In this document: positions 7,940 through 52,851 of the stretch, one piece after another
How positions within the stretch are numbered: position 1 is the first letter of the stretch
How the letters are laid out: every line of letters begins with the position of its first letter
Assembly (NCBI GenBank): GCA_028873125.1
Contig: JAGWMQ010000001.1
Location: 36,744 to 100,743 of the forward strand
DNA from: Verrucomicrobiota bacterium
Lineage (GTDB): Bacteria > Verrucomicrobiota > Verrucomicrobiia > Limisphaerales > UBA11358
Length of the DNA stretch: 64,000 nt
Direction: 5' to 3'
Program-made: the position numbers and the translations under genes
The notes under the pieces: model-generated
Told to the model about the DNA's origin: nothing
Database searches by the model: none
What the model saw: the letters and a program-made list of their open reading frames with translations, nothing else

Positions 7940-8695
7940 TCAAAGGAATTGCCGGAGCGCCCGTTCGTCGCCAATCGTGCCCAGCAGGTAGAGTTTGCCG
8001 CCTTCTGTCCAGGCGGCGGTGAACAGACGGTTGACGCCGGCCAGTTGCGGCGGGGCCGCGACGGGCGCGTCTTTCACCGCCGCCCGCTCCACCACAAAGA
8101 GCCACAAATCACTCCGTTGGCCGGGTGGGAGCGGTCTTGCGGTCCGGAAACAAATCATGGAAACCGCCGCCCCCTGCCAGCGTTCAATCGCACAGCCGGT
8201 GAGCGTCGTCTTTTGCAGCGGCGCGGGCAGCACGTAATCTGCCGGCGCGCCGTGCCGCGCGAGGTAGGCGCGGATCTGGGTCGGGTCGTTCGTCGTCAAA
8301 TCCATCGCGTAACCGCGCAGCGCGATGCCCGACATCCGGCTCCGGTAAATGGCAAAGGTGTTGTCGCCCCCGCCCGAGCGGAACCAGAGCGTGGTCAGGG
8401 CGAGCAACGCCACCACGGACGCCGCCGCCGCGAGAATGAGGCGGGGCTGCCGGAAAATGGCTTTCCTCCGTGCGGTCTCTTCGGAAATGATCTGTTCCTT
8501 CAATCCGGCTGGGGCGGCGATCTGCCGGAACCGGTCGCGGAGCGTGTTTTGCCGCGCGTCATGATCCTCCAGCCAGCGCCCGAGCGCCGGGTCGTTCCGG
8601 GCCAGCGCCAGCACCGCGGCAATTTGCGGGTCGTCCGCGTCCACCGTGCCGGGGCGGTAGAGCAGCAAAATGGTTTTGATTTCGTCTTGATTCAC
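7940..8695 (-). CDS. Putative membrane anti-sigma factor
   Basis: 251 aa with a single central TM (LILAAAASVVALLALTTLWF). Its start overlaps the stop of the upstream ECF sigma gene by 4 nt. Confidence 0.6.
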   Translation of the reverse strand: MNQDEIKTILLLYRPGTVDADDPQIAAVLALARNDPALGRWLEDHDARQNTLRDRFRQIAAPAGLKEQIISEETARRKAIFRQPRLILAAAASVVALLALTTLWFRSGGGDNTFAIYRSRMSGIALRGYAMDLTTNDPTQIRAYLARHGAPADYVLPAPLQKTTLTGCAIERWQGAAVSMICFRTARPLPPGQRSDLWLFVVERAAVKDAPVAAPPQLAGVNRLFTAAWTEGGKLYLLGTIGDERALRQFL

Positions 8696-9216
8696 AGATT
8701 CGTGGGTTTGGAGCGCGCACCGGTGGTCCGGCCGATCAGCAATTGGTGCAGCCGGCCCAGGCCGCGCGTCAGGCGCGATTTGACGGTGCCCAGCGGTACG
8801 CCGAGAATTTCGGCGATCTCGTTGTAGGAACAGTCCTGCAAATAGAACAGCGCGACCGGCGCTTGGTAAAGGTCCTCAAGCTGGGCCAGGGCTTGAAGCG
8901 CCTGCGCGGCGTCGAGGCCGCCGCCCACGTCCGGGGAAACGGCTGGCAGGTCCGCGCCCGCGTGTTCAAGTTCGACGTGCGGAAAGCGGGTTTGCCGGCG
9001 CCTCGCGCCCAGGAATTCGCGGTGCAGCGTGGTGAACAACCAGGTCTTCACTTTGGAGGCGTCGCGCAATTGATGGCCTTTGGCCGCCCAGACGCAAAAC
9101 GTCTGCTGGGTGAGGTCGCAGGCTTCCGCCTCGTTGCGGGTCAGGCTGAAGGCGAATTGATAAAGCGCCTCGTAGTATCGGGTCACCAGACTTTCGAAGT
9201 CAGCGGTTTCAGCCAT
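8692..9216 (-). CDS. ECF-type RNA polymerase sigma-70 family factor
   Basis: Region 2 (YEALYQFAFSLTRNEAEACDLTQQTF) and region 4 HTH (YNEIAEILGVPLGTVKSRLTRG). Confidence 0.9.
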   Translation of the reverse strand: MAETADFESLVTRYYEALYQFAFSLTRNEAEACDLTQQTFCVWAAKGHQLRDASKVKTWLFTTLHREFLGARRRQTRFPHVELEHAGADLPAVSPDVGGGLDAAQALQALAQLEDLYQAPVALFYLQDCSYNEIAEILGVPLGTVKSRLTRGLGRLHQLLIGRTTGARSKPTNL

Positions 9217-10124: not shown

Positions 10125-10636
10125 CCGCACATTTTGACCGGTGCTCGGGGATGGCAGACGGATTTCTGCTCTGGGGACGAGGGGGCGGTGAACGATGATG
10201 CTGCGCCAGGAGCGCTGCTGGAGTTGGCGTCAGGAGGCACTGTGGTCGGTCAAAAAATTCCCGGCAGAGTTGACAGAAGCCCGGCTCAAGGGCACGTCGA
10301 GACGGCTCGTTCCAAAGACAAGGATGTTTTTGTCCAAAGTCTCTCTGGCCGTCGCCGAGGTTTTCCTATTTTCCTTCGGATTTTGGCCTTCGGCTTCGGC
10401 CGCAACCAATTAACGTTGCCTTCGAAAATTTCTACTTTCTCCGGGAACTTTTTCTTCCCTCGTTCGTCACACTGTTCTGAATGGCTGAGGAAGGGTTTGA
10501 AGACGCGGCGCCAAGAAACCTGCGCGGTACGAATCGTTATGGCGTGCTCCAAAATTTTTGGGTCGTGCGGGAGAAATACGTTGGCGGCGGGGAAAAAACA
10601 GTGCAACACCAGTCCGCCGCGCGAGGAAAGGACGGC

Positions 10637-12526
10637 ATGAGAACATTGAGAAACATTGGAACAACGAGAGGATTGCAGACAACCTTTTGCCTCTTGGGCG
10701 CTTGGGCGTTTGCTGGCGCGGCGTGCCTTGTCCGCGCTCAAAGCGCCTACACCCAACACAACCTGGTTTCCGACGTGCCGGGCCTGGCGGACATCACCGA
10801 CACGAATCTCTTGAACCCATGGGGCATCGCGTTCAGCGCGACGGGGCCGTTTCGGATTTCCGACAATCACAGCGGATTGTCCACGGTTTACGATGGCACG
10901 GGCACGCCGCAGTCGCTCGTCGTCGCCATTCCGCCGCCGGCTGGCGGCGCGCCACCCGCCGCGCCGACGGGAATTGTTTTCAACAACACCACCAACTTTA
11001 TTGTTGCGTCCAATGCGGCCGCGAAATTTATTTTCGCTACGGAAGACGGTACCCTCTCGGCCTGGGCCAGCGGAACCGATGCCGTGCTGAAGGTGGACAA
11101 TTCCGCATCGAGCGCCATTTACAAAGGCCTGGCCCTGGGCAGCGCCAACGGCAGCAACTACCTTTACGCCACCGATTTTCACGATGGCAAGGTGGACGTG
11201 TTTGATGAAGAATTTAATCCCGTCGCCTGGCCGGGCGCCTTCACCGACACGAACATTCCGGCGGGGTTTGCACCCTTCGGCATCCAGACCATCGGGACGA
11301 ACGTGTTTGTGACTTACGCGAAGCAGGATGCCAACGCGGAAGACGACGTGGCCGGGCCGGGCTACGGTTACGTGGACATCTATGACACCGGCGGAAACTT
11401 GGTGAAGCGATTCATCTCGAACGGTGCGCTGAATTCGCCCTGGGGCATGGCGGTGGCGCCGGCGAACTTCGGGCTGTTCGCCGGGCAACTGCTGATTGGA
11501 AACTTTGGCGACGGAACGATCAACGCCTTTGATCCGGCGAGCGGCACACTGGTGAGCACGCTGAAGGACACCAACGGCGCGCCGATTGCGATTGACGGTC
11601 TTTGGGGCTTGAAGTTCGGCAACGGCGGTAGCGGCGGCGATACGAACACGCTTTATTTCACCGCCGGCATCGCCGCGGGCGGAGCGGTCGAGGACCATGG
11701 TTTGTTCGGCAGCCTTTCAGTGGCCGTCCCGTCGCGGAACCCCACCGCAGCCAATGTCAGTGTCCTGAACTATCAGTTCAATCCAGCGACCGCCAACATC
11801 AATGTCAATGACACGGTTATTTGGACTTGGCCCAGCGGCTCCTTTGACCACAACGTCACCAGCACGAGCAATCCCCAGTCATGGCCAGCCTCGCTCACCG
11901 AGAATGGCCCGTATTCCTTTACCAACACTTTCACGGCTGCGGGCACCTATCCGTATGAATGCACAATTCATGCTGTCAGTTTCGGGATGAAGGGCACGAT
12001 CATCGTCGCCGCGCCGGACGTGCCGCCTGCGGCTTTGCTCTTCAGTCCGGGTTCCGGCGCCGTCTTCGCCGCTCCCGCCAACGTCACGCTGCGCGCCGCG
12101 GCCGGAGACACCGACGGGTCGGTGACCAATGTGCAATTCCGGGTCGGCGCGACCGTGCTGACCAACCAAACGACCGTTCCGTTTTCGGCGGTCGCCGCCA
12201 ATCTGGCCGCGGGCAATTACACGCTTACGGCCATCGCCGCCGACAACGGCGGGTTGACGGCGACCAATTCCGTGGACATCAGCGTGGTTACGCCGACCGC
12301 GGTGACGCTGACGAATCTGGCGGCGACTTCCGGATCGAATTTTCAATTCAGTTATTTGGTCAACACGGGCTTGACTTACATCGTGCAAATGTCCACCAAT
12401 CTGGCTGCGGGCAATTGGATTCCCGTGGCCACCAACACGGCCGCCAGCAATCCCGCCGTATTTGTGGACCTCCACGCCACGAACAATCCGGCCTTTTACC
12501 GCGTCGGCCGGCTCCCCAATCCCTAG
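10637..12526 (+). CDS. Secreted TIGR03118-like beta-propeller fused to a cupredoxin (type-1 copper) domain, Ig-like domains and a C-terminal FYRV module
   Basis: N-terminal half matches TIGR03118 from memory (YTQHNLVSDVPGLA, NPWGIAFS, LIGNFGDGTINAFDP, GLWGLKFGNG). The cupredoxin part has FDHNVTS and YPYECTIHAVSFGMKG (His, Cys, His, Met ligands). The start is at ATG 10637 with an AGGAAAGGA upstream. Confidence 0.85.
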   Translation: MRTLRNIGTTRGLQTTFCLLGAWAFAGAACLVRAQSAYTQHNLVSDVPGLADITDTNLLNPWGIAFSATGPFRISDNHSGLSTVYDGTGTPQSLVVAIPPPAGGAPPAAPTGIVFNNTTNFIVASNAAAKFIFATEDGTLSAWASGTDAVLKVDNSASSAIYKGLALGSANGSNYLYATDFHDGKVDVFDEEFNPVAWPGAFTDTNIPAGFAPFGIQTIGTNVFVTYAKQDANAEDDVAGPGYGYVDIYDTGGNLVKRFISNGALNSPWGMAVAPANFGLFAGQLLIGNFGDGTINAFDPASGTLVSTLKDTNGAPIAIDGLWGLKFGNGGSGGDTNTLYFTAGIAAGGAVEDHGLFGSLSVAVPSRNPTAANVSVLNYQFNPATANINVNDTVIWTWPSGSFDHNVTSTSNPQSWPASLTENGPYSFTNTFTAAGTYPYECTIHAVSFGMKGTIIVAAPDVPPAALLFSPGSGAVFAAPANVTLRAAAGDTDGSVTNVQFRVGATVLTNQTTVPFSAVAANLAAGNYTLTAIAADNGGLTATNSVDISVVTPTAVTLTNLAATSGSNFQFSYLVNTGLTYIVQMSTNLAAGNWIPVATNTAASNPAVFVDLHATNNPAFYRVGRLPNP

Positions 12527-12547: not shown

Positions 12548-13477
12548 ATGCGATCGCCTCGAATGATCCCGGGCGTGCTGGCACTGGGCCTGTTGCTTTC
12601 GTGGCCGGCGAAATCGGGGAAAAATTTATTGCCGCCGCCGGGGGGCAACGCGCCGGTTCGTGTGTTCGCCGCCACGGGCGTGGTTGAATCGCTCCAGCTG
12701 GACGACAAGACCGCGGTCATCCGCAACGACGCCATCTCCAATTTCATGGCCGCCATGACCATGCCGTTCCAGGTCAAGGACGCCGGAGCCCTGGCCGGCC
12801 TGAAACGCGGCGACAAAATTTCGTTTCGACTTCACGTGACCCGGACGGAAAGCTGGATTGACCGGATCGTGAAAATCGGAGCGGCGGAGCCGGCGGCAAG
12901 TCCAAAGGCTGCGGAGGCCTCCCCGGCCGCGGCGCCACCCCCGCAGCGGGCCGATTCCATACTGGACTACGCCTTCACCAACGAGCTTGGGCGGCCGGTC
13001 CGTTTGAATGATTTCCACGGGCAGGCGCTGGCGGTCACCTTCTTCTACACGCGCTGCCCGCTGCCGGACTACTGTCCGCGGCTCTCGAAAAATTTTCAGG
13101 AGGCCTCGCAAAAACTCGAAGCGATGGCTCAAGCGCCCACCAACTGGCATTTTATTTCCGTTTCGTTCGACCCGGCATTTGACACTCCGTCCGTGCTGAA
13201 GGCCTACGGCCAGAGCTACGATTACGATCCGAAACACTGGAGTTTTCTGACCGGGCCGCCGGACAAAATCGCCGAACTGGCGCGCGCGGCGGGGGTGGCA
13301 TACGAAGCGGAGGGCGGCACGATCAAACATAATTTCCGCACGCTTATCGTTGACGCCACCGGCCATTTGCAGATGATTTTCCCGACCGGCGGCGACTTAT
13401 CGGGGGAAATCGTTTCGGAAATCCTCAAGGCCGCCGCGGTGACAAATCAGATGGTTTCGCAAAACCAAAACCGGTGA
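12548..13477 (+). CDS. CusF-like copper-binding domain fused to an SCO1/SenC thioredoxin-fold copper chaperone
   Basis: The N-terminal domain FMAAMTMPFQVKD...LKRGDKISFRL is CusF-like. The C-terminal domain FFYTRCPLPDYCPR...HNFRTLIVDATG is SCO1/SenC-like, but with CX5C instead of the usual CX3C. Confidence 0.8.
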   Translation: MRSPRMIPGVLALGLLLSWPAKSGKNLLPPPGGNAPVRVFAATGVVESLQLDDKTAVIRNDAISNFMAAMTMPFQVKDAGALAGLKRGDKISFRLHVTRTESWIDRIVKIGAAEPAASPKAAEASPAAAPPPQRADSILDYAFTNELGRPVRLNDFHGQALAVTFFYTRCPLPDYCPRLSKNFQEASQKLEAMAQAPTNWHFISVSFDPAFDTPSVLKAYGQSYDYDPKHWSFLTGPPDKIAELARAAGVAYEAEGGTIKHNFRTLIVDATGHLQMIFPTGGDLSGEIVSEILKAAAVTNQMVSQNQNR

Positions 13478-14256
13478 AACTGAAACGGACAGCCGCGGCG
13501 GCGCTGGCGTTTGCCCTTCCAGCCGGCGCCACGTTTATTTTCATTTCCTGTTCCACCACTTCGCACCCCATCGTCGCGCCGCTGGAAATACCCGGCGCGC
13601 ATGACGTCGGCAACCAGGTCTGCGCGCAGTGTCACGCGGACATTGTCCGCGAATTTCCCGCCAGCCCCCACGCGCACTTGGCGCTGGCCAACGCGGGCGC
13701 GCCCGGCGGCTCCGGCTGCGAATCCTGCCACGGTCCCGGCAGCAAACACGTCGAGTCCGGCGGCGCAGCCCGATTCATCATCAACCCCCGCCGCGACCCC
13801 GACGCCTGCTTCCGCTGCCACCTCCAGGTCCGCGCCGCATTTGAATTGCCCGACCATCACCCCGTCATCGAGGGCCGGATGAGTTGCATGCAATGCCACG
13901 ACCCGCACGGCGGCGACATCTACAAGACCTCCGGCGGCCTGGCGATGGCGCGGCGGAATGAGACCTGCGCCCAGTGCCACCGCGAACAGACGCGCCCGTT
14001 TGTCTTCGAGCATCCGGCCGTGCGCGAAGGCTGCACGACCTGCCACGACCCGCACGGCTCCGTCAACCGCATGTTGCTCACGCAGGCCGACGACAATTTG
14101 TGCCTCCGTTGCCACGCCCAGACGCAGGCGGCGCCCGGCCGGATTTACATCGGCAACGTGGACCACACGGCGCTCCTGCAAATCGGCACCTGCTGGTCCG
14201 CCGGCTGCCACACGGCCATTCACGGTTCGGACGTGGACCCGCGGCTGCGATACTGA
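13474..14256 (+). CDS. Lipoprotein multihaem c-type cytochrome (7 CXXCH + 1 CX4CH)
   Basis: Lipobox FISC. Haem motifs: CAQCH, CESCH, CFRCH, CMQCH, CAQCH, CTTCH, CLRCH and CWSAGCH. PFVFEHP and IHGS motifs are typical of paired-CXXCH MtrA/DmsE/NrfB-like proteins. The GTG start overlaps the SCO stop (GTGA). Confidence 0.9.
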   Translation: MKLKRTAAAALAFALPAGATFIFISCSTTSHPIVAPLEIPGAHDVGNQVCAQCHADIVREFPASPHAHLALANAGAPGGSGCESCHGPGSKHVESGGAARFIINPRRDPDACFRCHLQVRAAFELPDHHPVIEGRMSCMQCHDPHGGDIYKTSGGLAMARRNETCAQCHREQTRPFVFEHPAVREGCTTCHDPHGSVNRMLLTQADDNLCLRCHAQTQAAPGRIYIGNVDHTALLQIGTCWSAGCHTAIHGSDVDPRLRY

Positions 14257-16710
14257 ATGAATGAGAAGTTCCAAACTTCAAGTTCCGGGTTCCAAAAAGT
14301 GCCAAACTCCAAGCTCCAGTCCGGCTCCGGTTTGAAGTTTGGAACTTGGAACTTCTTTGGAATTTGGTGTTTGGAACTTGGAATTTTGTCTTCCGTTTCC
14401 GCCGCCGGGGTTGGTCCCACCAATCTCCCGCCGCCGGCGCCGGTCAAAATCAATTTCGATCGCGACGTGCGCCCGATTTTTGAAGGCAGTTGTTTCCGCT
14501 GCCACGGCCCGAGGGAACCGAAAAACGATTTCCGCCTCGATGTCCGCTCCCAGGCGGTGGAAGGCGGGGACGCCAACACGAACGACATCGTCCCGGGCCA
14601 CAGCGACCGGAGCGAACTCATCCGCTACGTGTCCGGGCTTGACAAACGGGTCCATATGCCGCCGCGCGACAGCGGATTGCCGGCGCTGACGCGTGAGCAG
14701 GTCGCCGTGCTGGAGGCGTGGATTGATCAAGGCGCGCCCTGGGGCACGAACGCCGGACCGCCGGCGCTCGTCTTCGCCCTCACACCGACGCTGCGCGGCT
14801 TCGACGCGCACGGCGACCGCGGAAAATTCCGCGAACTGGAAGGCGTTCCCGAAGGCTTTGGCGGCGGCGTGGAAAATTTTTTCAGCCGGCAACGGAACGC
14901 CGGCGCCGTCCTGACGGTGGAAGGCCGCGCCCTGCTCCCCGAACGCGACCTCAAGCTCGCGCTCAAGCTGGAAAAGGACGACATCGGTTTCGTGGACGGC
15001 GGTTTTGAAACGTGGCGGAAGTATTACGACGACACCGGCGGGTATTATCCGGGATTCACCCCGTCCACGTATTCCCCGGGTCGGGACCTCCACGTTGACA
15101 TGGGACGCGCCTGGATGGATTTCGGACTGACCCTGCCCCGCGCGCCGAAAGTGGTGCTCGGTTACGAATATCAATCGCGCCAAGGCAACGAATCCACGCT
15201 GGCGTGGGGAACGGTCCTCCAAACCAGCGGCGCCAAAAACATTTATCCCAATGTCCAAGGCGTGAGCGAACACACGCACCTTTTGAAACTTGAACTCACA
15301 GACGAATGGCTTGGCTGGAACATTGAGGACCGCGCGCGCGGGACATTTTACCGGCTCGGCGAATCGCGCAACGACACGCCCGCCATCCCGATCCTGTCCG
15401 GCGGCACGCAGCGCCTGGATCAAAAGGTGACCTACACGCGGGGCGCGAACACCTTCCGCGTCGAGAGGCAGGTCACGGACTGGTGGCGCGTCTCCGCCGG
15501 CAGCCTGTATTCTCGCTACGATGGCACGACGCTTTTCAATCTGACCGCCGCGGATGTCTCCTGCGCGCCGGTTCCGGGCGCCTATTGGCGGTCGGAAGGC
15601 GTCACTCTGGAACGCGATTCGCGCGTGGCCAGTCTCGCCAGCCTGTTCCTTCCGGTGAAGGGCTTTAGCCTCTCGGCCGCCGGCCAGGCCGAGTGGACGC
15701 ACGAGAAGGGGTTTGGCGACGTGGCGCTGGATTTTGGCGACCCCAATCCTGCGTTTCCCGGCACGGTGAGTGCGAACCAGAACCAGACCGAATTTTCGGA
15801 GAATCTCGACGCTCAATTCAACCGGCTGCCCCACACCGTGGTGTTCGCCGAGACGCGGCTGCAACAGGAGAGCATCGGACAATCCGACGAGGCGGACAAC
15901 GCCATCGCCTTCCTGGACGGCGCCGGGGCCATTGGCCAGCGCACCGACGCGCTCAATCATCTTTACGACACACGCGCCGGCTTCACCTCCTCGCCGTGGT
16001 CGTGGCTGGAATTTGGCGGCCACTACCGCCGCCGCGACAGCGACACCGGCTACGACCATTCCAGCGCGCAACCCGGCAATGGCTATCCGGGCTTCATCAA
16101 TCACCGCGACATCGCGATGGACGAGATCGCGGGGCGGCTGGCGCTGCGTCCGGCGTTCTGGTTGAGCGGGCGGCTGACCTACGCCTGGAACGTGTCGCGT
16201 TATTCCGCCGCAACCGCGGGAGCGACCAATTTTGACGGCAGCCTCGCCGCCCCCGGCGGCCCCCTTCTGGCCGGACGCACCGCATCGCACGTTGCCGGAC
16301 TGAATCTCATGATCACTCCCGCGCAAAGGTTTTACTTTTCCGGCGCGTTCACCTACAGCTTCTCCCGGACGACCACGGCGGACAACGGCGATGCCGCCGT
16401 CGTGCCCTATCGCGGCGACGTTTTTACCGTCAGCGCCGGCGCGGGTCTTGTGCTGGACGCCAGGACAGACTTGAACGCCACCTATGTATTTTCGCGGTCA
16501 GCCTACGGGCAAAACAATACGGCGGGGCTGCCCTTGGGCCTCGATTTCACGCGCCACGAACTGCTCGTGGGCGTCACGCGGCAACTGTCCAAATGCTGGT
16601 CCGGCGCGCTGCGTTACCGCTTTTCCCAATACGCCGAACCCAGTTCAGGCGGGGCGAACGACTTCACGGCCCACGGGATTTTCGCCACGCTCAATTATAA
16701 ATGGCCCTGA
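14257..16710 (+). CDS. PSCyt1-type monohaem cytochrome domain fused to a large putative outer-membrane beta-barrel
   Basis: DVRPIFEGSCFRCHGP...MPP...LEAWIDQGAPW matches the Planctomycete cytochrome C (PSCyt1) domain. The remaining ~650 aa show alternating hydrophobic strand patterns rich in Y/G/S/T, ending in GIFATLNYKWP (aromatic OMP-like terminus). The ATG abuts the stop of the multihaem gene. Confidence 0.7.
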   Translation: MNEKFQTSSSGFQKVPNSKLQSGSGLKFGTWNFFGIWCLELGILSSVSAAGVGPTNLPPPAPVKINFDRDVRPIFEGSCFRCHGPREPKNDFRLDVRSQAVEGGDANTNDIVPGHSDRSELIRYVSGLDKRVHMPPRDSGLPALTREQVAVLEAWIDQGAPWGTNAGPPALVFALTPTLRGFDAHGDRGKFRELEGVPEGFGGGVENFFSRQRNAGAVLTVEGRALLPERDLKLALKLEKDDIGFVDGGFETWRKYYDDTGGYYPGFTPSTYSPGRDLHVDMGRAWMDFGLTLPRAPKVVLGYEYQSRQGNESTLAWGTVLQTSGAKNIYPNVQGVSEHTHLLKLELTDEWLGWNIEDRARGTFYRLGESRNDTPAIPILSGGTQRLDQKVTYTRGANTFRVERQVTDWWRVSAGSLYSRYDGTTLFNLTAADVSCAPVPGAYWRSEGVTLERDSRVASLASLFLPVKGFSLSAAGQAEWTHEKGFGDVALDFGDPNPAFPGTVSANQNQTEFSENLDAQFNRLPHTVVFAETRLQQESIGQSDEADNAIAFLDGAGAIGQRTDALNHLYDTRAGFTSSPWSWLEFGGHYRRRDSDTGYDHSSAQPGNGYPGFINHRDIAMDEIAGRLALRPAFWLSGRLTYAWNVSRYSAATAGATNFDGSLAAPGGPLLAGRTASHVAGLNLMITPAQRFYFSGAFTYSFSRTTTADNGDAAVVPYRGDVFTVSAGAGLVLDARTDLNATYVFSRSAYGQNNTAGLPLGLDFTRHELLVGVTRQLSKCWSGALRYRFSQYAEPSSGGANDFTAHGIFATLNYKWP
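14267..14386. repeat. Heptamer-periodic palindromic repeat (CCAA-type arm then TTGG-type arm)
   Basis: Left arm gttccaaacttcaagttccgggttccaaaaag...ctccaagctccag. Right arm tttgaagtttggaacttggaacttctttggaatttggtgtttggaacttggaatt. The arms are mutually complementary in several registers. Confidence 0.85.
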
Positions 16711-16809
16711 TGATTCCATCAGAAACGGCACAAGGAAAATAAACCGTCCGGCATGAGGCAAAAACCGCATTGCCGCCGGGATGCGGCTGTGGAATGTTCT
16801 TCCGAAGTC

Positions 16810-17583
16810 ATGAGCGAGTTCAAATTCGCCTGTCCGGTGTGCGGCCAGCACATCCGCTGCGATTCGTCACAGAGCGGCTCGGCGATGGGATGTCCGACGT
16901 GCTTCCAGAAGATCATCGCTCCGAACGCCCCTGCGACCGACGCCTCCAAATACATCCTGACGGGCACCAAGGCCGGCGAACGGCCTTCCCTGAAAATGGC
17001 CGGCCAGGGCCCTGCTCCCGGCCCGGTCTCCCGGGGGGTTCCAGGCGCGGTCGTGGTCGTGGTCCTGCTGCTCGGCATCGCGGCGGCAGTGGCGTTTGTG
17101 TATCACGGAACCCTTTTCAAACCGGCACCGGCCGGCGACGTCAAATGGACGCTGAACCTGGGCGCCATGACCATTCCAGACGCGCCCGCCGCCGGACGGA
17201 TTCATGGAACGGATTTCACCTGCCGGCGGGCGGTGCTGGAAGGCGGCGGATTGACGCTGCGTCAGGGCGGGCACGGCGTGCCGGACCTCAGCGTGACCAT
17301 TTACCTGCACGCCAAGCGCAGCGCGGTCCTGGCGGGACAAAATATCCGCATCGCCGCCAATTTCGCCGACGCGCCGCCCGTCCGCTTGCGCTGCAAGGAA
17401 ATCCCGCCGCAAATGAAGACGGAGACGTTCGAAGGCGGCTACGCCCTGCGCCTGGAATTTGGCGCCTTGGCCGGCAAACGGCTGCCGGGAAGAATCTACC
17501 TGTCCACGCCGGACCCGATGAAAAGCTACGTGGCCGGAACGTTCAACGCCGAAATCCGCCAGCCCAAGCCAAAGCGGCCGTGA
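16810..17583 (+). CDS. Zinc-ribbon / single-TM protein of unknown function
   Basis: FACPVCGQHIRCDSSQSGSAMGCPTCFQKI (CxxC...CxxC), then TM VVVVVLLLGIAAAVAFV and a ~150-aa C-terminal domain. The start is set at ATG 16810. Confidence 0.6.
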   Translation: MSEFKFACPVCGQHIRCDSSQSGSAMGCPTCFQKIIAPNAPATDASKYILTGTKAGERPSLKMAGQGPAPGPVSRGVPGAVVVVVLLLGIAAAVAFVYHGTLFKPAPAGDVKWTLNLGAMTIPDAPAAGRIHGTDFTCRRAVLEGGGLTLRQGGHGVPDLSVTIYLHAKRSAVLAGQNIRIAANFADAPPVRLRCKEIPPQMKTETFEGGYALRLEFGALAGKRLPGRIYLSTPDPMKSYVAGTFNAEIRQPKPKRP

Positions 17584-27285: not shown

Positions 27286-28395
27286 TCAGCCCGATTGCGG
27301 CTCGACGACGATTTTCAACGAATCGTCCGCCGGCCGCGCCGCCAGCGCAATGGCCGCCGGCGCCTGTTCCAGCGGAAACCGGTGGGTGATCAAATGCCGC
27401 GCATTGAGTCGGCGGGAAAAAACCAGGCGTGCCGCCTCGGCCTGCAGGGTGAGGTCCGCCGAATAACTGCCCAGCAAATCCTTTTCCTCCATGCAGATGG
27501 CCGCCGGGTCAATGCCCAGGGTCCCGCCGTGCCGGGTGTGGGCGAACAACAAAACCTGTCCGCCGCCCCGCACGGCCCGGAGCGCCTGCCGCGTCGCTTC
27601 GTCGGAAGGAACAGCGATAATTGCCGCGTCCAACGTCCCTGGCCCAAAGCCCAATCTCCCCCCTGCGCCGCGTCGTTCCCCAAACTTGGGATTTGGCACT
27701 TCGAGCTTGGAACTTGGAACCAACTTCGTCCATTCCGCGCCCCATCGTCTGGCCAGCCGCAGACGCGACGCCAGCAAATCCGTCGCCAGGACCCGCGCGC
27801 CCCTTAATTTGAGCAGCCGCGTGAACATCAGACCAATCGGCCCCTGCCCCGCCACCAGCACGCGGTCGCCTCGCAAAAGGTTCAGGCGATGAATCGCCTT
27901 CAAGACGGTGTTGACCGGTTCGAGCAGCGCGCCCTCCTCAAAGGAATTCTTCGCCGGAATCTTCACCAGGCCCGGCAATGCGAAGTCCATCACCCGGACG
28001 TACTCGGCAAAGCCGCCGCCGGCCGGCTCGAATCCCGCCGTGATGCCCGTGCGCCGGTACTGCGGACACTGGGCGAAAGCGCGGTGCCGGCAAAAATGGC
28101 ACTGCAAACACGGCACGTGATGATGCAACGCCACCCGGTCGCCCGCTTTGAACCCCAACTTCGAACTTCCAACTCCCAGCTTCACAATTGTCCCGGCCGT
28201 TTCGTGCCCGAAAATGCGCGGTGGCGCCGGCGCGCCCGACTGGATTTTTTTGATGTCCGTCGGGCAGACACCGCACACGGCCACCCGGACCAGCAATTCG
28301 TTGGGGCCGATCCGCGGCACGGGCACCGACTCGACGCGCACGTCATTGACGCCGCGATACACCGCCGCCCGCATCGTTTTGGGAATGGCAAGCAC
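27286..28395 (-). CDS. Zinc-dependent medium-chain dehydrogenase/reductase, carrying repeat-derived in-frame segments
   Basis: VCGVCPTDIKK, GHETAGTIV, GDRVALHHHVPCLQCHFCR (structural Zn Cys cluster) and VAGQGPIGL (Rossmann fold). The segments LVPSSKLEVPNPKFGE and GVGSSKLG are encoded by heptamer-repeat DNA. Confidence 0.85.
   Translation of the reverse strand: MLAIPKTMRAAVYRGVNDVRVESVPVPRIGPNELLVRVAVCGVCPTDIKKIQSGAPAPPRIFGHETAGTIVKLGVGSSKLGFKAGDRVALHHHVPCLQCHFCRHRAFAQCPQYRRTGITAGFEPAGGGFAEYVRVMDFALPGLVKIPAKNSFEEGALLEPVNTVLKAIHRLNLLRGDRVLVAGQGPIGLMFTRLLKLRGARVLATDLLASRLRLARRWGAEWTKLVPSSKLEVPNPKFGERRGAGGRLGFGPGTLDAAIIAVPSDEATRQALRAVRGGGQVLLFAHTRHGGTLGIDPAAICMEEKDLLGSYSADLTLQAEAARLVFSRRLNARHLITHRFPLEQAPAAIALAARPADDSLKIVVEPQSG
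27682..27728. repeat. Heptamer repeat copy inside the dehydrogenase CDS
   Basis: aaacttgggatttggcacttcgagcttggaacttggaaccaacttcg, translated on the minus strand as VPSSKLEVPNPKF. Confidence 0.75.
28153..28183. repeat. Heptamer repeat copy inside the dehydrogenase CDS
   Basis: ccccaacttcgaacttccaactcccagcttc. It shares an identical 20-mer aacttccaactcccagcttc (28164-28183) with uvrC positions 45432-45451. Confidence 0.75.
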
Positions 28396-32347: not shown

Positions 32348-33778
32348 TCACTGCCGGCTGGTTTCTTCCCGCCAGCCGCCGCCCAGGGCCTGGTACAGGT
32401 TGATTAAATTGAACAGGCGCGAGTATTGGGATTGAATGAGGTTTTGCCGCGCAGTGTCGAGGGTTTGCCGGGCGGCGAGCACGTCCAGAGCGCTGTCCAC
32501 GCCGTTGTGGAAGCGGGCGAGGGCCAGTTGGTAATTTTGTCGGTCGGCCTTGAAGAGCGCCTGGTTGGCGGCCAGTTGCGTCCGGACGGCGGCTTGCGCC
32601 GCCAGAGAGTCGGCCGCTTCCCGGAAGGCGGTTTGAATGGTCTTTTGGTAATTGGCGGCTTCGATCATTTTGCCGGCCTCGACGGCCTTCAGTTCATTCC
32701 AGGCGGTCCCGGCGGCGAAAATGGGCCACACGAGTTGCGGCGAAAAGCCCCAGGTTTGCGAACCGGGCGCGAACAAGCCTTCCAAGGTTGTGCTGGCCGT
32801 GCCCGCCGAACCGGTGAGGGTGATGGTCGGGAAAAAGGCGGCCCGGGCGGCGCCGATGTTGGCGTTGGCGGCCTTGAGTTGATGCTCGGCGGCGAGAATG
32901 TCCGGACGGCGTTCCAAAAGGTCCGACGGCAACCCGGCCGGGATGCTGGACAGGCAAATGCGGGGATTGAACGGCCGGGGCGGCGGCAGGTCCGCGGGCA
33001 GGGGCCGGCCCACCAGGAGCACCAAATAATCCCGGGCTTGGGCGAGCAGTTGCTCGTAGCCGGCCACGGCGGCGCGCGCGGTTTGCGTCTGGATTTCGGC
33101 GGCGTTCAAATCCAGCCGGGAACGGACGCCGGCCTCGTAGCTTTCTTGGGTCAACTCGTAGGCCTGCTGTGCCGATTTGAAAGTTTGTTGCGCCACGGCG
33201 AGCTGTTCGGTCAACTCCCGTTCCGTCAGGTAGGCGGCGCCCACCTCGGCCACCAGCGCGATCTGGGCGCTCCTGCGGGCTTCTGCGCTGGCAAAATAAG
33301 TTTCCAACGCCTGCCTTTTGAGGCTGCGCACGCGCCCGAACAAGTCCAGCTCATACGCGGCGACCCCCAGGCCCACGTTGTACTGGCTGTAGGTTGTCCC
33401 CTCGCCTTTGCCGGCAAAGCCGTAGGCAATGCGCTGGCGCGTGCCGTTGGCGTCCACGTTCACGGTGGGAATCAAGGCGTTCCGCTGGACGTGGTAGAGG
33501 TCCCGCGCCTGTTCGACGTTCAGCATCGCCACGCGCAGGTCGGGGTTGTTGGTCAAGGCCAGGCCGATCAGGGCCCGCAGGCGCGGGTCCCGGAAAAATT
33601 CGCGCCAGCCGACGTCCGCCGCCGGGACCGCTGCCGCCTTGGCCGGATTCCCGGACTGTCCGGGCGCCTGGGGCCAGGTCGGCGCGATGGCTGCGGCGGG
33701 ACGTTTGTACCTGGGAGCGAGGGTGCAGCCGGCCAGAACGACGGCGCCCAATGTCAGGATGAAAACCGTTTTTTTCAT
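32348..33778 (-). CDS. RND efflux outer-membrane factor lipoprotein (NodT/OprM family)
   Basis: Lipobox LAGC and a two-repeat OMF architecture. Overlaps the RND pump gene by 4 nt. Confidence 0.9.
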
Positions 33779-36700
33779 GGCTCTTGCGCGGGTTCAACAG
33801 GTGCGGGCGCACCCGGCCGGCGGGTCCGGCCCTTGAATATCCGCCGGATGATGACAAAGAACACCGGCACGAAAAGGATGCCCAAAAACACCGCCGCCGC
33901 CATGCCGCCGATGACGCCGGTGCCGATGGCGTTCTGGCTGGCGGAGCCGGCGCCGGTGTTGACGGCCAGCGGGAGCACGCCGAGAATGAAGGCCAGCGAC
34001 GTCATCAGAATCGGGCGCAACCGGATTTTTGACGCTTCCAGAGTGGCCTCGATCAAGCCCTTGCCCTCGGCCAGCAGGTTTTGCGCAAATTGGACGATCA
34101 GAATGGCGTTCTTGGTCGCCAGGCCGATGGTGGTGATGAGGCCCACCTTGAAGAAGACATCGTTGGGCAGGCCGCGCAGCGTCGCCGCCAACAACGCCCC
34201 CAGCACGCCCACCGGCACCGCCAGAATGATGCTCAAGGGAATGGACCAGCTTTCGTAAAGGGCGGCCAGGCACAAAAACACCACCGTGACCGAAATGGAA
34301 TACAGCGCCGGCGCCTGCGCCCCGGACAGGCGTTCCTGGTAGGACTGGCCGGTCCATTCGTAGCCGATGCCGGCGGGCAGTTTTTGGGCCATCGCTTCCA
34401 TGGCTTGCATGGCCATGCCTGAACTCTTGCCGGGGGCGGCGGCGCCGACAATTTCCACGGCGGGAAATCCGTTGTAATGCTCCAGCCGCGGCGAGCCGTA
34501 GGTCCATTGCAAGGCGGTGAAGGACGAGAGCGGCACCATGGCGCCGCTGCTGTTGCGCACGAACACCTTGCCGATGTCCTGCGGCAACATGCGATGCGCC
34601 GCAGCCAGTTGAACGATCACCTGCTGCACGCGATTGCCGTTCACGAAATTGTTCACGAAGGTCGAGCCGAAATCCGCCTGCAACGTGGAGTTGATGTCCG
34701 CCAGCCCCACGCCCAGGGCGCTGGCCTTGTCCCGGTCCACCTGGATTTTCAATTCCGCCGTGTCTTCCATGCCTTGCGGACGCACACTGGCCACGTCGGC
34801 GTTGGTCGCGGCCATGGCCAGCAATTCGTTGCGTGCGGCCATGAGTTGGGCGTGGCCGAGGCCGCCCTGGTCCTCCAGCTCAAAGTCGAATCCGGCGACG
34901 GTGCCCAGTTCGGGGATCGGCGGCGGATTGAACGGGAAAATGACGGCGTCCTTGATGGCGGAAAATGCCCCGAAGGCCCGGGTGATGATGGCCTGCACGT
35001 GGTGGGCCGCGCCGTGGCGCCGGCTCCAGTCCTTCAGATGCACAAACGCGATGGCCGCGTTCTGTCCGCTGCCGCTGAAGCTGAAGCCGGCCACGTCAAT
35101 CACGTCCTGCACCTCCGGCTGTTTCAGGTAGTAGTTTTCCATCTGTTTGAGCACCGCCAGGGTGCGGGCTTGTGTCGCGCCCACCGGCAATTGAATGCTG
35201 GTGATGAAATAACCCTGGTCCTCGAGGGGCAGGAAGGACGTGGGCAACCGGTGATACAGCCAGCCGACCGCCAGCAGAATGGCCGCGTAGGCCAAGAGCC
35301 ACCGCGGCGCATGGGCCAGCATGCGCGAGACCATGGCTTGATAGTCCCGGGCGCCCGCCGTGTAAAAGCGGTTGAACCAGCCGAACACGCCCTTCCTGGC
35401 CAGGTGATGTCCCTGCTCCACCGGCTTGAGCATCGAGGCGCACAGCGCCGGCGTGAAGGACATCGCCAGAAAAATCGAGAACAGCATGGACGAAACCATC
35501 GCCAGCGAAAATTGCCGGTAAATGGCCCCGACCGACCCGCCAAAAAGGGCCATGGGGATGAACACCGCCGTCAACACCAGGGCGATGCCGATCAGCGCGC
35601 CCGTGATCTGCCCCATGGACTTGCGCGTCGCCTCGCGCGGCGACAGCCCCTCCTCGCTCATGATGCGTTCGACGTTCTCCACCACCACGATCGCGTCGTC
35701 CACCAGCAGCCCGATGGCCAGCACCATGCCGAACATCGTCAGCACGTTGATCGAAAAACCCGCCAGCCGCATGATGGAGAACGTCCCCATCAATGCCACC
35801 GGCACCACGATGGTCGGGATGAAGGCGGCGCGCAGGTTTTGCAGGAAAAGGTAGATCACCAGGAACACCAGCCCGAAGGCCTCCAACAGCGTGTACACCA
35901 CCTGCTCGATGGAGGTGTGGACGAAGGCCGAGCTGTCGTAGGGGAAATCCACCGCGACGCCCGGCGGGAAGAATTTGGAAAGCTGCGCGACCTTGGCGCG
36001 CACGGCGTCGGCCACGGCCAGGGCGTTGGCCGTGGGGGTCAACTTGATGCCCACCGCCGCCGCCGGCCGGCCGTTGACGCGCGCCTGGACGCTGTAATTC
36101 TGCCCGCCCAGGGCCACCCGGGCCACGTCGCGCAGGTAAACCCGCGAGCCGTCGGGATTGACGCGCAGGACGATGTTCTCAAATTGCTCGGGGGTCCGCA
36201 GCAGGCTTTGCCCCTGCAACACCACGTTCAGTTCCTGGCCATTGACCGCCGGCAACGCGCCCAACTGTCCGGCGGCGACCTGGACGTTCTGCGCGCGGAC
36301 GGCCTGGACCACGTCATCCGCCGTCAGGCCAAAGCTGTCCAGTTTGGCCGGATTGAGCCAGATGCGCATGGCAAACTCGCTGCCGAACAAATCCGCCTCG
36401 CCCACGCCGGGGAGGCGGCGGATGGCGTCGAGGACTTTCGAGGCGATGAAATTTCCCAGCTCGACCTGATTCATGCTGCCGTTCTCGGACGACAGGGTGA
36501 AGAACATCAGGAAGTTATGGGTGGCTTTGGCGACGACGACGCCCTGCAACTGCACCGCCGCCGGCAGGTTCGGCATGGCCAGTTGCAATTTGTTTTGCAC
36601 CTGCACCTGGGCGATGTCCGGGTTCGTGCCCGGCTCGAAATAAAGAATGATCTGCGCCTGCCCCGAGGACTGGCTGACCGACGACATGTAGAGCAGGCCG

Positions 36701-36918
36701 TCAATGCCGTTCAACTGCTGCTCGATCACCGAGGTCACCGTGTTCTGCAAGGTCTCGGCGGAGGCGCCCGGGTACGTGGCGGTGATGGACACCGACGGCG
36801 GGGCGATGCTGGGATACTCGGCGACGGGCAGCTTGGTCAAGGACAACGCGCCCGACAACAGAATCAGCAGCGAGATCACCCAGGCAAAAATCGGGCGGTC
36901 AATGAAAAACCTTGGCAT
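33775..36918 (-). CDS. RND multidrug efflux permease (AcrB/MexB-like, HAE1)
   Basis: 1047 aa. [24 protein letters not shown]-terminus and typical 12-TM AcrB-family sequence throughout. Confidence 0.95.
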
Positions 36919-36929
36919 GACGACTTTCC

Positions 36930-38111
36930 TTAATTGGCCGCGTTGGTGGGCGATTCAAACGGCACCGGCTTGACCGTGACTCCCGGCCGGACTTTTTGCA
37001 GCCCGGCCAGAATCACCCGGTCGCCCACCTTCAACCCGCCGGTGATGATCCATTTGCCGTCCACCGCCGATCCCACCGTCACCGGCCTCTCCTCCACCTT
37101 GTTGTCGGGGGTCACGACCATGACCGACGGTTTGCCGTCCGGGCCATAGGTCACGCCGCGCTGCGACACGGTGATCGCCTTCGCATCCACCGCCTGCTCC
37201 AGCCGGGCGCGCGCGAACATTCCGGGCATCAGCAGGTGGTCGGGATTCGGAAAAAGGGCGCGCAACGTCACCATGCCGGTCGTCGGGTCCACGGTGATGT
37301 CCGAGAACAGCAGCCTGCCCGGATGCGCATAGGTCGTGCCGTCCTCCAACAACAAGGTCACCTTCGCCTCTCCCGGCGCCAGGCTCTTGAGTTGGCCGCT
37401 TTCAAATTCGCGCCGCAATTTCAAGACCTCCGTGCTGGATTCCGTGAAGTCAAAGTAAATGGGATCCAGTTGTTGAATCACCGCCAGCTCCGTCGCCGAG
37501 TTCTGGCCGACCAACGCGCCCTCCGTCACCAGCGCCGGCCCGATGCGCCCGGATATGGGCGCGGTGACGGTGCAGTAACCGAGGTTCAACGACGCCGTTT
37601 CCAGCGCCGCCTTGGCCGCCAGCACGTCCGCCCGGCCCTGCGCCGCCGCCGCCACCGCGTTGTCGTAATCCTGCTTGCTGACGGCCGCAATTTTGACGAG
37701 TTTTGTGTAGCGCCGGGCCAGGGCTTGATTTTGCCGGTTGTTGGCCGCGGCCTTCGCCAGGGCCGCCTTGGCGCTGTCGTACGCCGCCTGGAATGGCGCC
37801 GGATCAATGCGAAAGAGCACCTCGCCCTCCTTTACGTCCGAGCCCTCCTCAAAGACCCGCTTGAGCAGAATGCCCGCCACCCGCGCGCGGACCTGGGCGG
37901 TGCGCACCGGGTCAATCCGCCCGGGCAGGTCGGTGGTGATCGGCAGGGATTCAGTGGTGATGGTGACGACGCCGACCTCCGGAGGCAGGGTGGCGTGAGG
38001 CGGCGGTTGGCGGCCGCAACCGCTCAAGAGGGCCAGCGCCAGAATCGCCGGCGCAATCCCCGGGACGCCTGCCGGAACGAGGAGGCGGCGCGGCATGAAA
38101 TGTATGTTCAT
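36930..38111 (-). CDS. RND efflux periplasmic adaptor (AcrA/MexA-like membrane fusion protein)
   Basis: Lipobox LSGC, with hairpin, lipoyl and beta-barrel regions typical of MFPs. The start is at ATG 38111 to avoid overlap with the TetR gene. Confidence 0.9.
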
Positions 38112-38154
38112 ATCCTTGAGTGAGTGTTCACTAACCTTGAAAAAGCCGGGCCGC

Positions 38155-38847
38155 CTAGTTTTCACCGAAGAACAAGGCGAGCGCCTTCGGATTGTAGTAC
38201 GTGGCGATGGCCTTGTCCGTCAGACCCATCCCGCGGAGCGCAAACCAGACGGCCTGGTTCCGCAATTCCTCCCGCGAGACGCCGTAGTCAATTACCGGCC
38301 TGCGCGGCAGATGCGCCGACGCCAGCCAGGCGGCCACGTGATGCGCAAACCGGGCGTGGTTGCCCCTGGAAATCGGGCCTTTGACGGCGTCACCGGCGGC
38401 GATGGCCGCCTTCAAGCAGGCCTCCATGCGGGCGCAAAAGCAGTCAAAACGATTCCGGTAAAGGAGCCGCGCGAACACACCGTCCTCCAGCAAGCTGTTG
38501 ACCATCAAGCGGTGATAGGTTTCGGGGGGAATCGCTCCCGCGGGCCGGCCCAACACGATCACCGAGGTCAGATAATAAATCAAATGAACCAAGGTGGAGG
38601 TGGAGGCCTCCAAACCCCTCAGTTTTTCAACGACCGGACTGGATTCCCGGCAACTGAAGTTGTGGATTTCGCCGTAAAGCGCCTCCTTGCCGGGGAAATG
38701 CTTGTAGAGCAGCGGCTCCGAAACGCCGGCCGCCCGGGCCAGCTCCCGCGTGGTGGTCGCCGCGAAGCCCTTGCGCGCAAACAGCGGCAAGGCGGCCTTC
38801 ACGATGGCCCGTTTGCGATCTTCGGCGGACATGCGCCCCTTTTTCAC
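38155..38847 (-). CDS. TetR-family transcriptional regulator
   Basis: FARKGFAATTTRELARAAGVSEPLLYKHFPGKEAL is the TetR HTH. It heads the efflux operon. Confidence 0.9.
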   Translation of the reverse strand: MKKGRMSAEDRKRAIVKAALPLFARKGFAATTTRELARAAGVSEPLLYKHFPGKEALYGEIHNFSCRESSPVVEKLRGLEASTSTLVHLIYYLTSVIVLGRPAGAIPPETYHRLMVNSLLEDGVFARLLYRNRFDCFCARMEACLKAAIAAGDAVKGPISRGNHARFAHHVAAWLASAHLPRRPVIDYGVSREELRNQAVWFALRGMGLTDKAIATYYNPKALALFFGEN

Positions 38848-52721: not shown

Positions 52722-52851
52722 CCTCCAAGTTCCAGGTTCCAAAGAAGCGCCAAGTTCCAAGTTCCAAGTTCCAAACCGCGCCGCGCGATGGCGGCTTTGG
52801 GAGTTTGGAATTTGAGACTTCCTTGGAACTTGGAATTTGGAGCTTGGAACC
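52722..52851. repeat. Heptamer-periodic palindromic repeat between the ABC permease gene and the downstream gene
   Basis: Left arm ctccaagttccaggttccaaagaagcgccaagttccaagttccaagttccaaa; ~20-nt GC-rich loop; right arm ctttgggagtttggaatttgagacttccttggaacttggaatttggagcttggaacc. Confidence 0.9.

Follow-up and report, generated by a model that had tools for sequence, protein, structure and literature searches.

A PSCyt1 haem domain fused to a predicted MtrB-like barrel in Verrucomicrobiota, the probable sheath of a two-gene porin-cytochrome conduit

A 64,000-nucleotide stretch of a Verrucomicrobiota genome (GenBank assembly GCA_028873125.1, contig JAGWMQ010000001.1, positions 36,744 to 100,743; here called the window) encodes an 817-residue protein in which a monohaem c-type cytochrome domain of the PSCyt1 family is joined to a predicted 26-stranded outer-membrane beta-barrel, and the gene directly upstream encodes an octahaem cytochrome. 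Porin-cytochrome conduits serve Gram-negative bacteria in electron exchange with minerals, humics and electrodes; to our knowledge, almost all mechanistic understanding of them has been gained in Shewanella, Geobacter and a small number of iron oxidisers. We consider it probable (roughly 0.6) that this open reading frame (ORF) is the sheath of a two-gene conduit of this kind in the verrucomicrobial outer membrane, with the PSCyt1 domain serving as a relay. Feature coordinates are collected in Table 1, and residues of the barrel ORF are numbered from the ATG at 14257.

A first-pass annotation, made from the letters of the window, had proposed that a PSCyt1 haem domain and a very large beta-barrel are parts of the same polypeptide, and both halves of this proposal held. 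The Pfam match to PSCyt1 covers the whole model, at E 5.3e-13 and 49.8 bits (cut-off 22), and AlphaFold2, run with a 68-sequence alignment, returned 26 long beta-strands over residues 171-817, with a mean predicted local distance difference test (pLDDT) score of 79.9 and a predicted template-modelling (TM) score of 0.73. The four strand-like segments quoted at that stage (residues 742-754, 769-777, 784-793 and 807-817) turned out to be the last four predicted strands (737-749, 763-776, 781-793 and 803-816). When the model was compared with the PDB by Foldseek, the top match was MtrB (6r2q_B, E 2.8e-13, target-normalised TM 0.65), which forms the 26-strand sheath of the Mtr complex in Shewanella; it was followed by 22-strand TonB-dependent transporters at E 5e-10 or weaker, in keeping with the outer-membrane type that had been suspected. 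With 26 predicted strands and MtrB as the nearest fold, neither an absence of beta-strands nor a resemblance to a soluble family was found. Searched alone as a profile, the barrel region matched nothing relevant in the PDB; an exhaustive search of 1.84 billion representative proteins with this barrel-only profile gave 1028 clusters at E<=0.001, fused and unfused proteins together.

The architecture is not peculiar to the window. A word-indexed search of 5.8 billion proteins scored more than 852 homologues of about 800 amino acids with the same architecture, so the ORF is a real, conserved gene and a chance ORF is excluded; the homologues listed from this search measure about 770-860 amino acids, with PSCyt1 in nearly all. 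Public annotation of these proteins goes only as far as "c-type cytochrome domain-containing protein" or "hypothetical protein".

The evidence for a conduit comes largely from the partner gene, which ends at 14256 with its stop codon abutting the barrel ATG. Its product has eight conserved haem sites, seven of them CXXCH and the last a conserved CX4CH (CWSAGCH, 14191-14211). It matched the NCBIfam DmsE decahaem family (TIGR03508) at E 4.4e-48, below the curated cut-off, and the GSU2203 decahaem family at E 4.7e-51 (score 173.9 against a cut-off of 325). The best PDB sequence match was 6r2q_A (E 1.1e-26), a chain that we take to be MtrA, with residues 103-253 aligned to 174-324 over the last five haem sites. 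One genome per species was scanned with patterns from the PSCyt1 domain, which gave 58 loci encoding a barrel relative; all are labelled Verrucomicrobiota, bar a few obviously mis-binned metagenome-assembled genomes, and barrel identity runs from 68% down to 29%. At all 58 loci, the next gene upstream of the barrel encodes an octahaem homologue and runs on the same strand. Together, this invariant adjacency and the homology to MtrA support that the pair is an MtrAB/MtoAB-like porin-cytochrome module. The first-pass annotation had regarded the fused haem as a built-in electron entry point; the fused haem and its tether stand, but the idea of a stand-alone unit does not, given the MtrA-like octahaem cytochrome upstream at every locus. 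By analogy with MtrAB it is the octahaem cytochrome that is likely the trans-membrane wire, and the PSCyt1 haem is better described as an accessory relay, which could serve as exit as easily as entry.

Among 56 near-full-length partners of the fused clade (55 loci plus the window), the eighth haem site is CX4CH in 52 and canonical CXXCH in the other 4, which are reversions; the CX4CH form also occurs in all five partners examined from the unfused clade described below. A cysteine within a lipobox-like sequence, ...L(N/S/I/V)SC(S/A/G)T, is invariant in all partners except one fragmented copy (in the window ...FISC followed by STT), and the partner is thus a predicted lipoprotein.

Conservation within the PSCyt1 domain points to an intact haem site. 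Across the 68-sequence alignment, no variation is seen at C79, C82 and H83 (motif CFRCH) or at M134-P135-P136, and CXXCH...MP[PA] is present in 57 of 58 fused representatives. Judged by class I cytochrome c chemistry, Met134 is the probable sixth haem ligand; a c-type haem site has thus been kept, probably with His and Met as its ligands. AlphaFold2 placed a helical domain at residues 67-157 and a low-confidence linker at residues 161-170; in the 47 of 58 fused representatives with a recognisable WIxxGA helix, the linker has a median length of 6 residues (range 2-18). An even number of strands leaves both termini in the periplasm in all solved outer-membrane proteins. Taken with the short linker, this would place the haem domain at the periplasmic mouth of its own barrel, where it had been expected from the first reading.

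The PSCyt1 module and the WIxxGA helix that follows it are shared with the PSCyt1-PSD1/DUF1553 "Planctomycete cytochrome c" proteins, in which soluble domains follow, whereas here a membrane barrel is attached to the module; no PSD, DUF1549 or DUF1553 domain was matched in the window protein by Pfam at E<=0.1. Against the PDB, the PSCyt1 domain alone gave marginal matches only (hydrazine synthase alpha, E 0.015; PccH, E 0.44), and Pfam PccH appeared below threshold at E 0.028; none of these was used. A few fused homologues of 955-994 amino acids (P0062 and those at loci L038 and L049) carry a tandem pair of PSCyt1 domains ahead of the barrel.

At the other end of the protein, an aromatic terminus had been predicted. 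An aromatic residue is indeed present, but it is penultimate in the ending ...YKWP and not terminal. The usual ending of a fused-clade barrel is one hydrophobic or aromatic residue and then a single further residue (...KWP, ...LP; 16699-16707 in the window), while their unfused relatives have a classical terminal Phe, and the beta-signal of the fused clade seems to be shifted by one residue.

In the MtrAB structure, a multihaem cytochrome is threaded through the barrel. By analogy with that crystal structure, the octahaem cytochrome would be threaded through the lumen of the verrucomicrobial barrel as an insulated haem wire, with its lipidated N-terminus and first haem at the periplasmic rim. 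The PSCyt1 haem, a few residues from strand 1, would sit at the same rim beside the first haem of the octahaem cytochrome; it may then be viewed as a permanently docked ninth haem, a fixed relay between the wire and soluble periplasmic carriers.

Several observations weigh against this reading. The barrel of the window protein had no match at E<=0.1 in Pfam or NCBIfam except to the GSU2204 model (E 0.012), so that neither of the MtrB/PioB models, PF11854 and TIGR03509, was matched, and HMMER found no relevant PDB match when the full protein or a barrel-only profile was compared with all PDB sequences. The link of the window barrel to MtrB consists of its fold and one bridging homologue, the fused protein P0376, which passes the gathering score of Pfam MtrB_PioB (PF11854; 27 bits against 23, E 2.2e-6). 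Sub-threshold matches to MtrB_PioB were obtained for 2 of 12 family members (best E 0.11), and seven unfused barrels had no matches in NCBIfam. We regard the barrel as having an MtrB-like fold and as probably a very remote relative of MtrB/PioB, and do not claim membership of that family as demonstrated. Insertion of the cytochrome into the barrel is argued by analogy alone, the PSCyt1 domain was modelled with moderate confidence (pLDDT 44-85), and the partner is a predicted lipoprotein, unlike MtrA, which could mean a different anchoring or topology, for example a surface-exposed one. The cupredoxin and Sco1 genes considered below are absent from roughly 40-60% of fused loci, and the proposal of He et al. 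2017 (PMC5615132) for related clusters in Verrucomicrobia was electron export to humics.

The weakness of the sequence-level relationship leaves room for an ordinary solute channel or transporter, with the PSCyt1 domain sensing redox state, reducing a substrate or otherwise acting locally and the octahaem cytochrome outside the barrel. After MtrB, the best fold matches are TonB-dependent transporters, and the window protein itself has no sequence-level MtrB match, both of which fit such a channel. We nevertheless hold this to be very improbable indeed: the protein lacks a plug domain and matches no TonB-receptor model in Pfam, the predicted strands number 26 as in MtrB and not 22, and in both clades the barrel gene is invariably and tightly paired with that of an MtrA homologue.

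Homologues lacking the PSCyt1 module, a search for which had been suggested by the first-pass annotation, were found, and they make up a whole sister clade, which indicates that the haem domain was added to a module already in existence. Among the best 150 of the 1028 profile matches, 58 are full-length fused proteins, 35 are full-length unfused proteins and most of the rest are fragments; PSCyt1 is absent from 35 of the 96 full-length representatives in this set. The unfused proteins (660-725 amino acids) run from a normal signal peptide straight into strand 1 and end in an aromatic residue. In a neighbour-joining tree of the barrel regions, fused and unfused proteins fall into two clean clades, and mean pairwise identity within the fused clade is 34%; on these two grounds the fusion looks like a single old event that has since been maintained.

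Five proteins (P0030, P0059, P0061, P0137 and P0178) were considered as true losses of PSCyt1 and rejected as truncated gene calls, which begin inside the haem domain or, for P0178, at the very start of the barrel. One further protein inside the fused clade, P0132 (729 amino acids), has a 70-residue N-terminal leader without CXXCH, and is a possible case of secondary haem-domain loss or of a gene-call error. Truncated gene calls and P0132 account for the three apparent exceptions among the best 150 matches.

The unfused clade is also verrucomicrobial, and its members are annotated only as "hypothetical protein". We checked four independent unfused contexts, representing five loci of which two are near-identical. 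A gene for an octahaem cytochrome of about 250-270 amino acids lies directly upstream of the barrel in all four, and three of the four contain extra multihaem cytochromes (809, 549, 498 and 217 amino acids); a Rieske/cytochrome b unit is present in one, and cytochrome c biogenesis genes in one. In the fused clade, no other ORF with at least three CXXCH motifs was found within 10 kb on either side in 51 near-complete loci, so no MtrC/OmcB-like outer partner is encoded nearby. At one unfused locus (L086, 2892-3281), a free-standing 129-residue PSCyt1 protein with a signal peptide, CLQCH...MPPP and a WIRQG helix is encoded 5 kb upstream of the octahaem-barrel pair, which is followed by the Rieske/cytochrome b genes. 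In this single case, the free protein may be the unfused counterpart of the fused domain.

The direction in which electrons would pass through such a conduit is the weakest step of this reading. Our tentative choice, held at somewhat less than even odds, is inward flow, an uptake of electrons from extracellular donors in soluble or colloidal form (Fe(II) or reduced humics, for instance) of the sort put forward for MtoAB/PioAB. We lean to uptake because no extracellular multihaem partner is found near the fused clade, because a His/Met class-I-type haem, like His/Met monohaems in general, is normally high-potential, and because the genes are repeatedly linked to a blue-copper protein and a copper chaperone, which recalls Cyc2-rusticyanin.

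Run outward, the same conduit would let respiratory electrons leave the cell for soluble or colloidal acceptors, humic quinones or chelated Fe(III) among them, with the PSCyt1 haem as the periplasmic entry that the first-pass annotation had proposed. A high-potential His/Met monohaem would, by established chemistry, be a poor donor to a low-potential bis-His chain, no extracellular multihaem partner lies within 10 kb in the fused clade, and linkage to a cupredoxin and a copper chaperone is more typical of oxidative chains, of which the A. ferrooxidans rus operon is an example. We therefore think outward flow rather unlikely, although large additional multihaem cytochromes and a Rieske/cytochrome b unit are encoded next to unfused relatives, and although it is the published view of the verrucomicrobial clusters of a porin with a multihaem cytochrome (porin-MHC; He et al. 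2017, PMC5615132; Fiorito et al. 2026).

The copper-protein genes themselves bear on two further proposals. A gene for a CusF-Sco1 fusion lies directly upstream of the octahaem gene in about 24 of the 58 loci, a secreted cupredoxin/Big_7 homologue is encoded in about 36 and a pair of extracytoplasmic function (ECF) sigma and anti-sigma factors in about 38. The window DNA was found in mine-drainage and soil metagenomes, and in no RNA-seq run. These frequencies and the occurrence of the organism in mine drainage would suit a copper-handling device, in which copper or another metal undergoes redox chemistry at the envelope under ECF-sigma control together with the CusF-Sco1 and cupredoxin proteins. 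Such a device is highly improbable in our view, since the accessory genes are missing from many fused and all examined unfused loci whereas the octahaem-barrel pair is invariant, and Sco1 and CusF are more simply read as chaperones that load the cupredoxin. The absence of cupredoxin and Sco1 from many fused loci also means that the copper link is not obligatory to the conduit.

Where these genes do occur together, the fused barrel, octahaem cytochrome, cupredoxin and CusF-Sco1 protein might constitute a verrucomicrobial electron-uptake pathway leading from Fe(II) or reduced humics through the wire to the tethered, high-potential haem, on to a blue-copper carrier and then to a terminal oxidase. 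We put this forward as a doubtful but consequential proposal: if true, it would combine the logic of MtoAB with a Cyc2/rusticyanin chain, and would imply an unrecognised lithotrophic or "electrotrophic" capacity in abundant Verrucomicrobia of soil, peat and mine drainage.

Compared with characterised conduits, the window pair has in common with MtrAB (Shewanella baltica MtrCAB, 6R2Q), MtoAB and PioAB the 26-strand barrel, which should be wide enough for a multihaem cytochrome, and the adjacent MtrA/DmsE homologue, and its two-gene layout without an extracellular cytochrome resembles that of MtoAB/PioAB. It differs from MtrAB in its partner, which has 8 haems instead of 10, a CX4CH last site and a predicted lipid anchor, in its gene order, in which the cytochrome gene comes first and its stop codon abuts the start codon of the barrel gene, and in the monohaem domain fused to the N-terminus of the barrel.

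Closer relatives have been described in the same phylum. From Verrucomicrobia, He et al. 2017 reported a "novel porin-MHC" made up of a periplasmic cytochrome with sites for eight haems and a porin predicted to have 20 or more strands, and the preprint of Fiorito et al. 2026 (bioRxiv 10.64898/2026.05.27.727921) reports porin-MHC clusters EET3 and EET4 in Verrucomicrobiota. Compared by description, the clusters of He et al. match both the window and the unfused sister clade in phylum, in a porin of at least 20 strands and in the adjoining eight-haem cytochrome, and the unfused sister clade probably also matches EET3/EET4. The clusters of both studies include extra extracellular multihaem cytochromes, whereas the window clade has the PSCyt1 fusion and no extra multihaem cytochrome. 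A cytochrome domain on the porin is not mentioned in either He et al. 2017 or Fiorito et al. 2026. A full-text literature search combining "Planctomycete cytochrome C" with "beta-barrel" gave no results.

Cyc2 has a barrel of about 16 strands in about 400-450 amino acids, and a haem domain thought to lie inside the pore, and is not known to need a multihaem partner. The window protein instead has 26 strands over about 650 amino acids, a PSCyt1 module and an invariant octahaem partner, and no sequence relationship between it and Cyc2 was detected. Common to the window protein and Cyc2 of iron oxidisers is an N-terminal domain with a single CXXCH fused to a porin (Keffer et al. 2021, PMC8406198), Cyc2 being likewise one polypeptide made of an N-terminal single-CXXCH haem domain and an outer-membrane barrel (PMC6344600). 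NCBIfam already contains a "CXXCH-containing MtrB/PioB family barrel" that occurs beside a decahaem cytochrome, Geobacter GSU2204/GSU2203 (NF041027/NF041028). The window barrel scored 14.4 bits against the GSU2204 cut-off of 350 (E 0.012), over residues 674-707 only, and this uncharacterised family is not described as carrying PSCyt1. Already known, then, are unfused verrucomicrobial porin-cytochrome clusters (as predictions), the fused Cyc2 and a CXXCH-bearing MtrB-type barrel; the PSCyt1-barrel fusion is most likely a widespread, uncharacterised variant of porin-cytochrome conduits.

The two clades amount to a natural experiment, in which a bare MtrAB-like module accompanied by extra multihaem cytochromes can be set against a sister clade that has lost those cytochromes and gained a haem domain on the barrel. 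Both the coupling of such wires to the periplasm and the direction of flow would become apparent from the potential of the fused haem and the phenotype of its removal.

Table 1. Features of the barrel locus, with positions in the window
Feature	Position	Strand	Basis
Whole ORF, 817 amino acids: signal peptide, PSCyt1 monohaem domain, linker and 26-strand barrel	14257..16710	+	ORF list, Pfam, homologues, alignment, AlphaFold2
Probable signal peptide MKFGTWNFFGIWCLELGILSSVSAA (residues 26-50), if the start is TTG 14332	14332..14406	+	homologue comparison
Monohaem c-type cytochrome domain, residues 63-162	14443..14742	+	Pfam, alignment, AlphaFold2
Pfam PSCyt1 core, residues 79-138	14491..14670	+	Pfam
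Haem-binding motif CFRCH, residues 79-83	14491..14505	+	alignment
Met134 of the M-P-P motif, probable sixth haem ligand	14656..14658	+	alignment; role inferred
Linker from haem domain to strand 1, residues 163-170	14743..14766	+	AlphaFold2 pLDDT dip
26-stranded outer-membrane beta-barrel (predicted), MtrB-like fold, residues 171-817	14767..16707	+	AlphaFold2, Foldseek
Partner gene, 260-amino-acid octahaem cytochrome, predicted lipoprotein, MtrA/DmsE homologue	13474..14256	+	NCBIfam, PDB sequence match, loci comparison
Palindromic AT-richer repeat (TTCCAAA.../...TTTGGAA)	14262..14388	.	inverted repeats; RNA hairpin -54.9 kcal/mol, z -5.3
CusF-Sco1/SenC fusion, periplasmic copper chaperone type, accessory gene	12548..13477	+	Pfam
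TIGR03118, cupredoxin (C-T-I-H-x5-M type-1 Cu motif), Big_7 and FYRVGRLPNP tail, accessory gene	10481..12526	+	Pfam, NCBIfam
ECF sigma factor	8692-9216	-	divergently oriented
Putative anti-sigma factor	7940-8695	-	divergently oriented

The start of the barrel ORF may be the ATG at 14257 or an in-frame TTG at 14332. The stretch from the stop codon of the octahaem gene to the N-terminus of the mature barrel protein contains a palindromic repeat, which overlaps the first ~43 codons of the ORF. With the TTG as start, cleavage is predicted after MKFGTWNFFGIWCLELGILSSVSAA, the next residue being G; homologues have ordinary signal peptides ending in ...SAA, followed by ET, at the same alignment position. 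The start chosen by the gene caller, 14386, would leave the barrel protein without a signal peptide. The repeat (TTCCAAA.../...TTTGGAACTTGGAA) is dispersed, with further copies in the window at about 52725-52850 and 27706-27719, and its 3' arm appears to encode a hydrophobic core, FFGIWCLELGI. The odd N-terminal translation of the window protein recurs in homologues P0002 and P0114, which suggests that a similar element occupies this junction in other genomes, and the repeat may affect the relative expression of the octahaem and barrel cistrons. An antisense ORF of 682 amino acids (14278-16326, minus strand), rich in Arg, Gly and Ala as antisense ORFs in GC-rich DNA commonly are, was taken as a non-coding artefact of high GC content.

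Among the accessory genes, the type-1 copper motif is recognisable in 19 of 33 cupredoxin/Big_7 homologues. The TIGR03118 extension (10481-11740, E 3e-108) occurs in the window only; relatives are about 290 amino acids long and lack it. Almost all linked cupredoxin/Big_7 proteins, in the window (12497-12526) and at loci L001-L056, share a C-terminal tail, ...(F/Y)YRVG(R/L)LPNP, suggestive of a conserved signal for sorting or anchoring. A 276-residue gene downstream of the barrel (16753-17583) was considered as a member of the system and rejected, as it is not conserved in other loci.

Carriers of the barrel family are uncultured Verrucomicrobiota of soil, peat, lakes and mine drainage. Elsewhere in the window, the minus strand at 33775-38165 encodes an AcrB-type resistance-nodulation-division efflux pump (1047 amino acids) and a CusB/HlyD-type membrane-fusion protein, and the rest is housekeeping, including ArgH, NadB, PanC, SufB, MurJ, UvrB, UvrC and a GH2 glycosidase.

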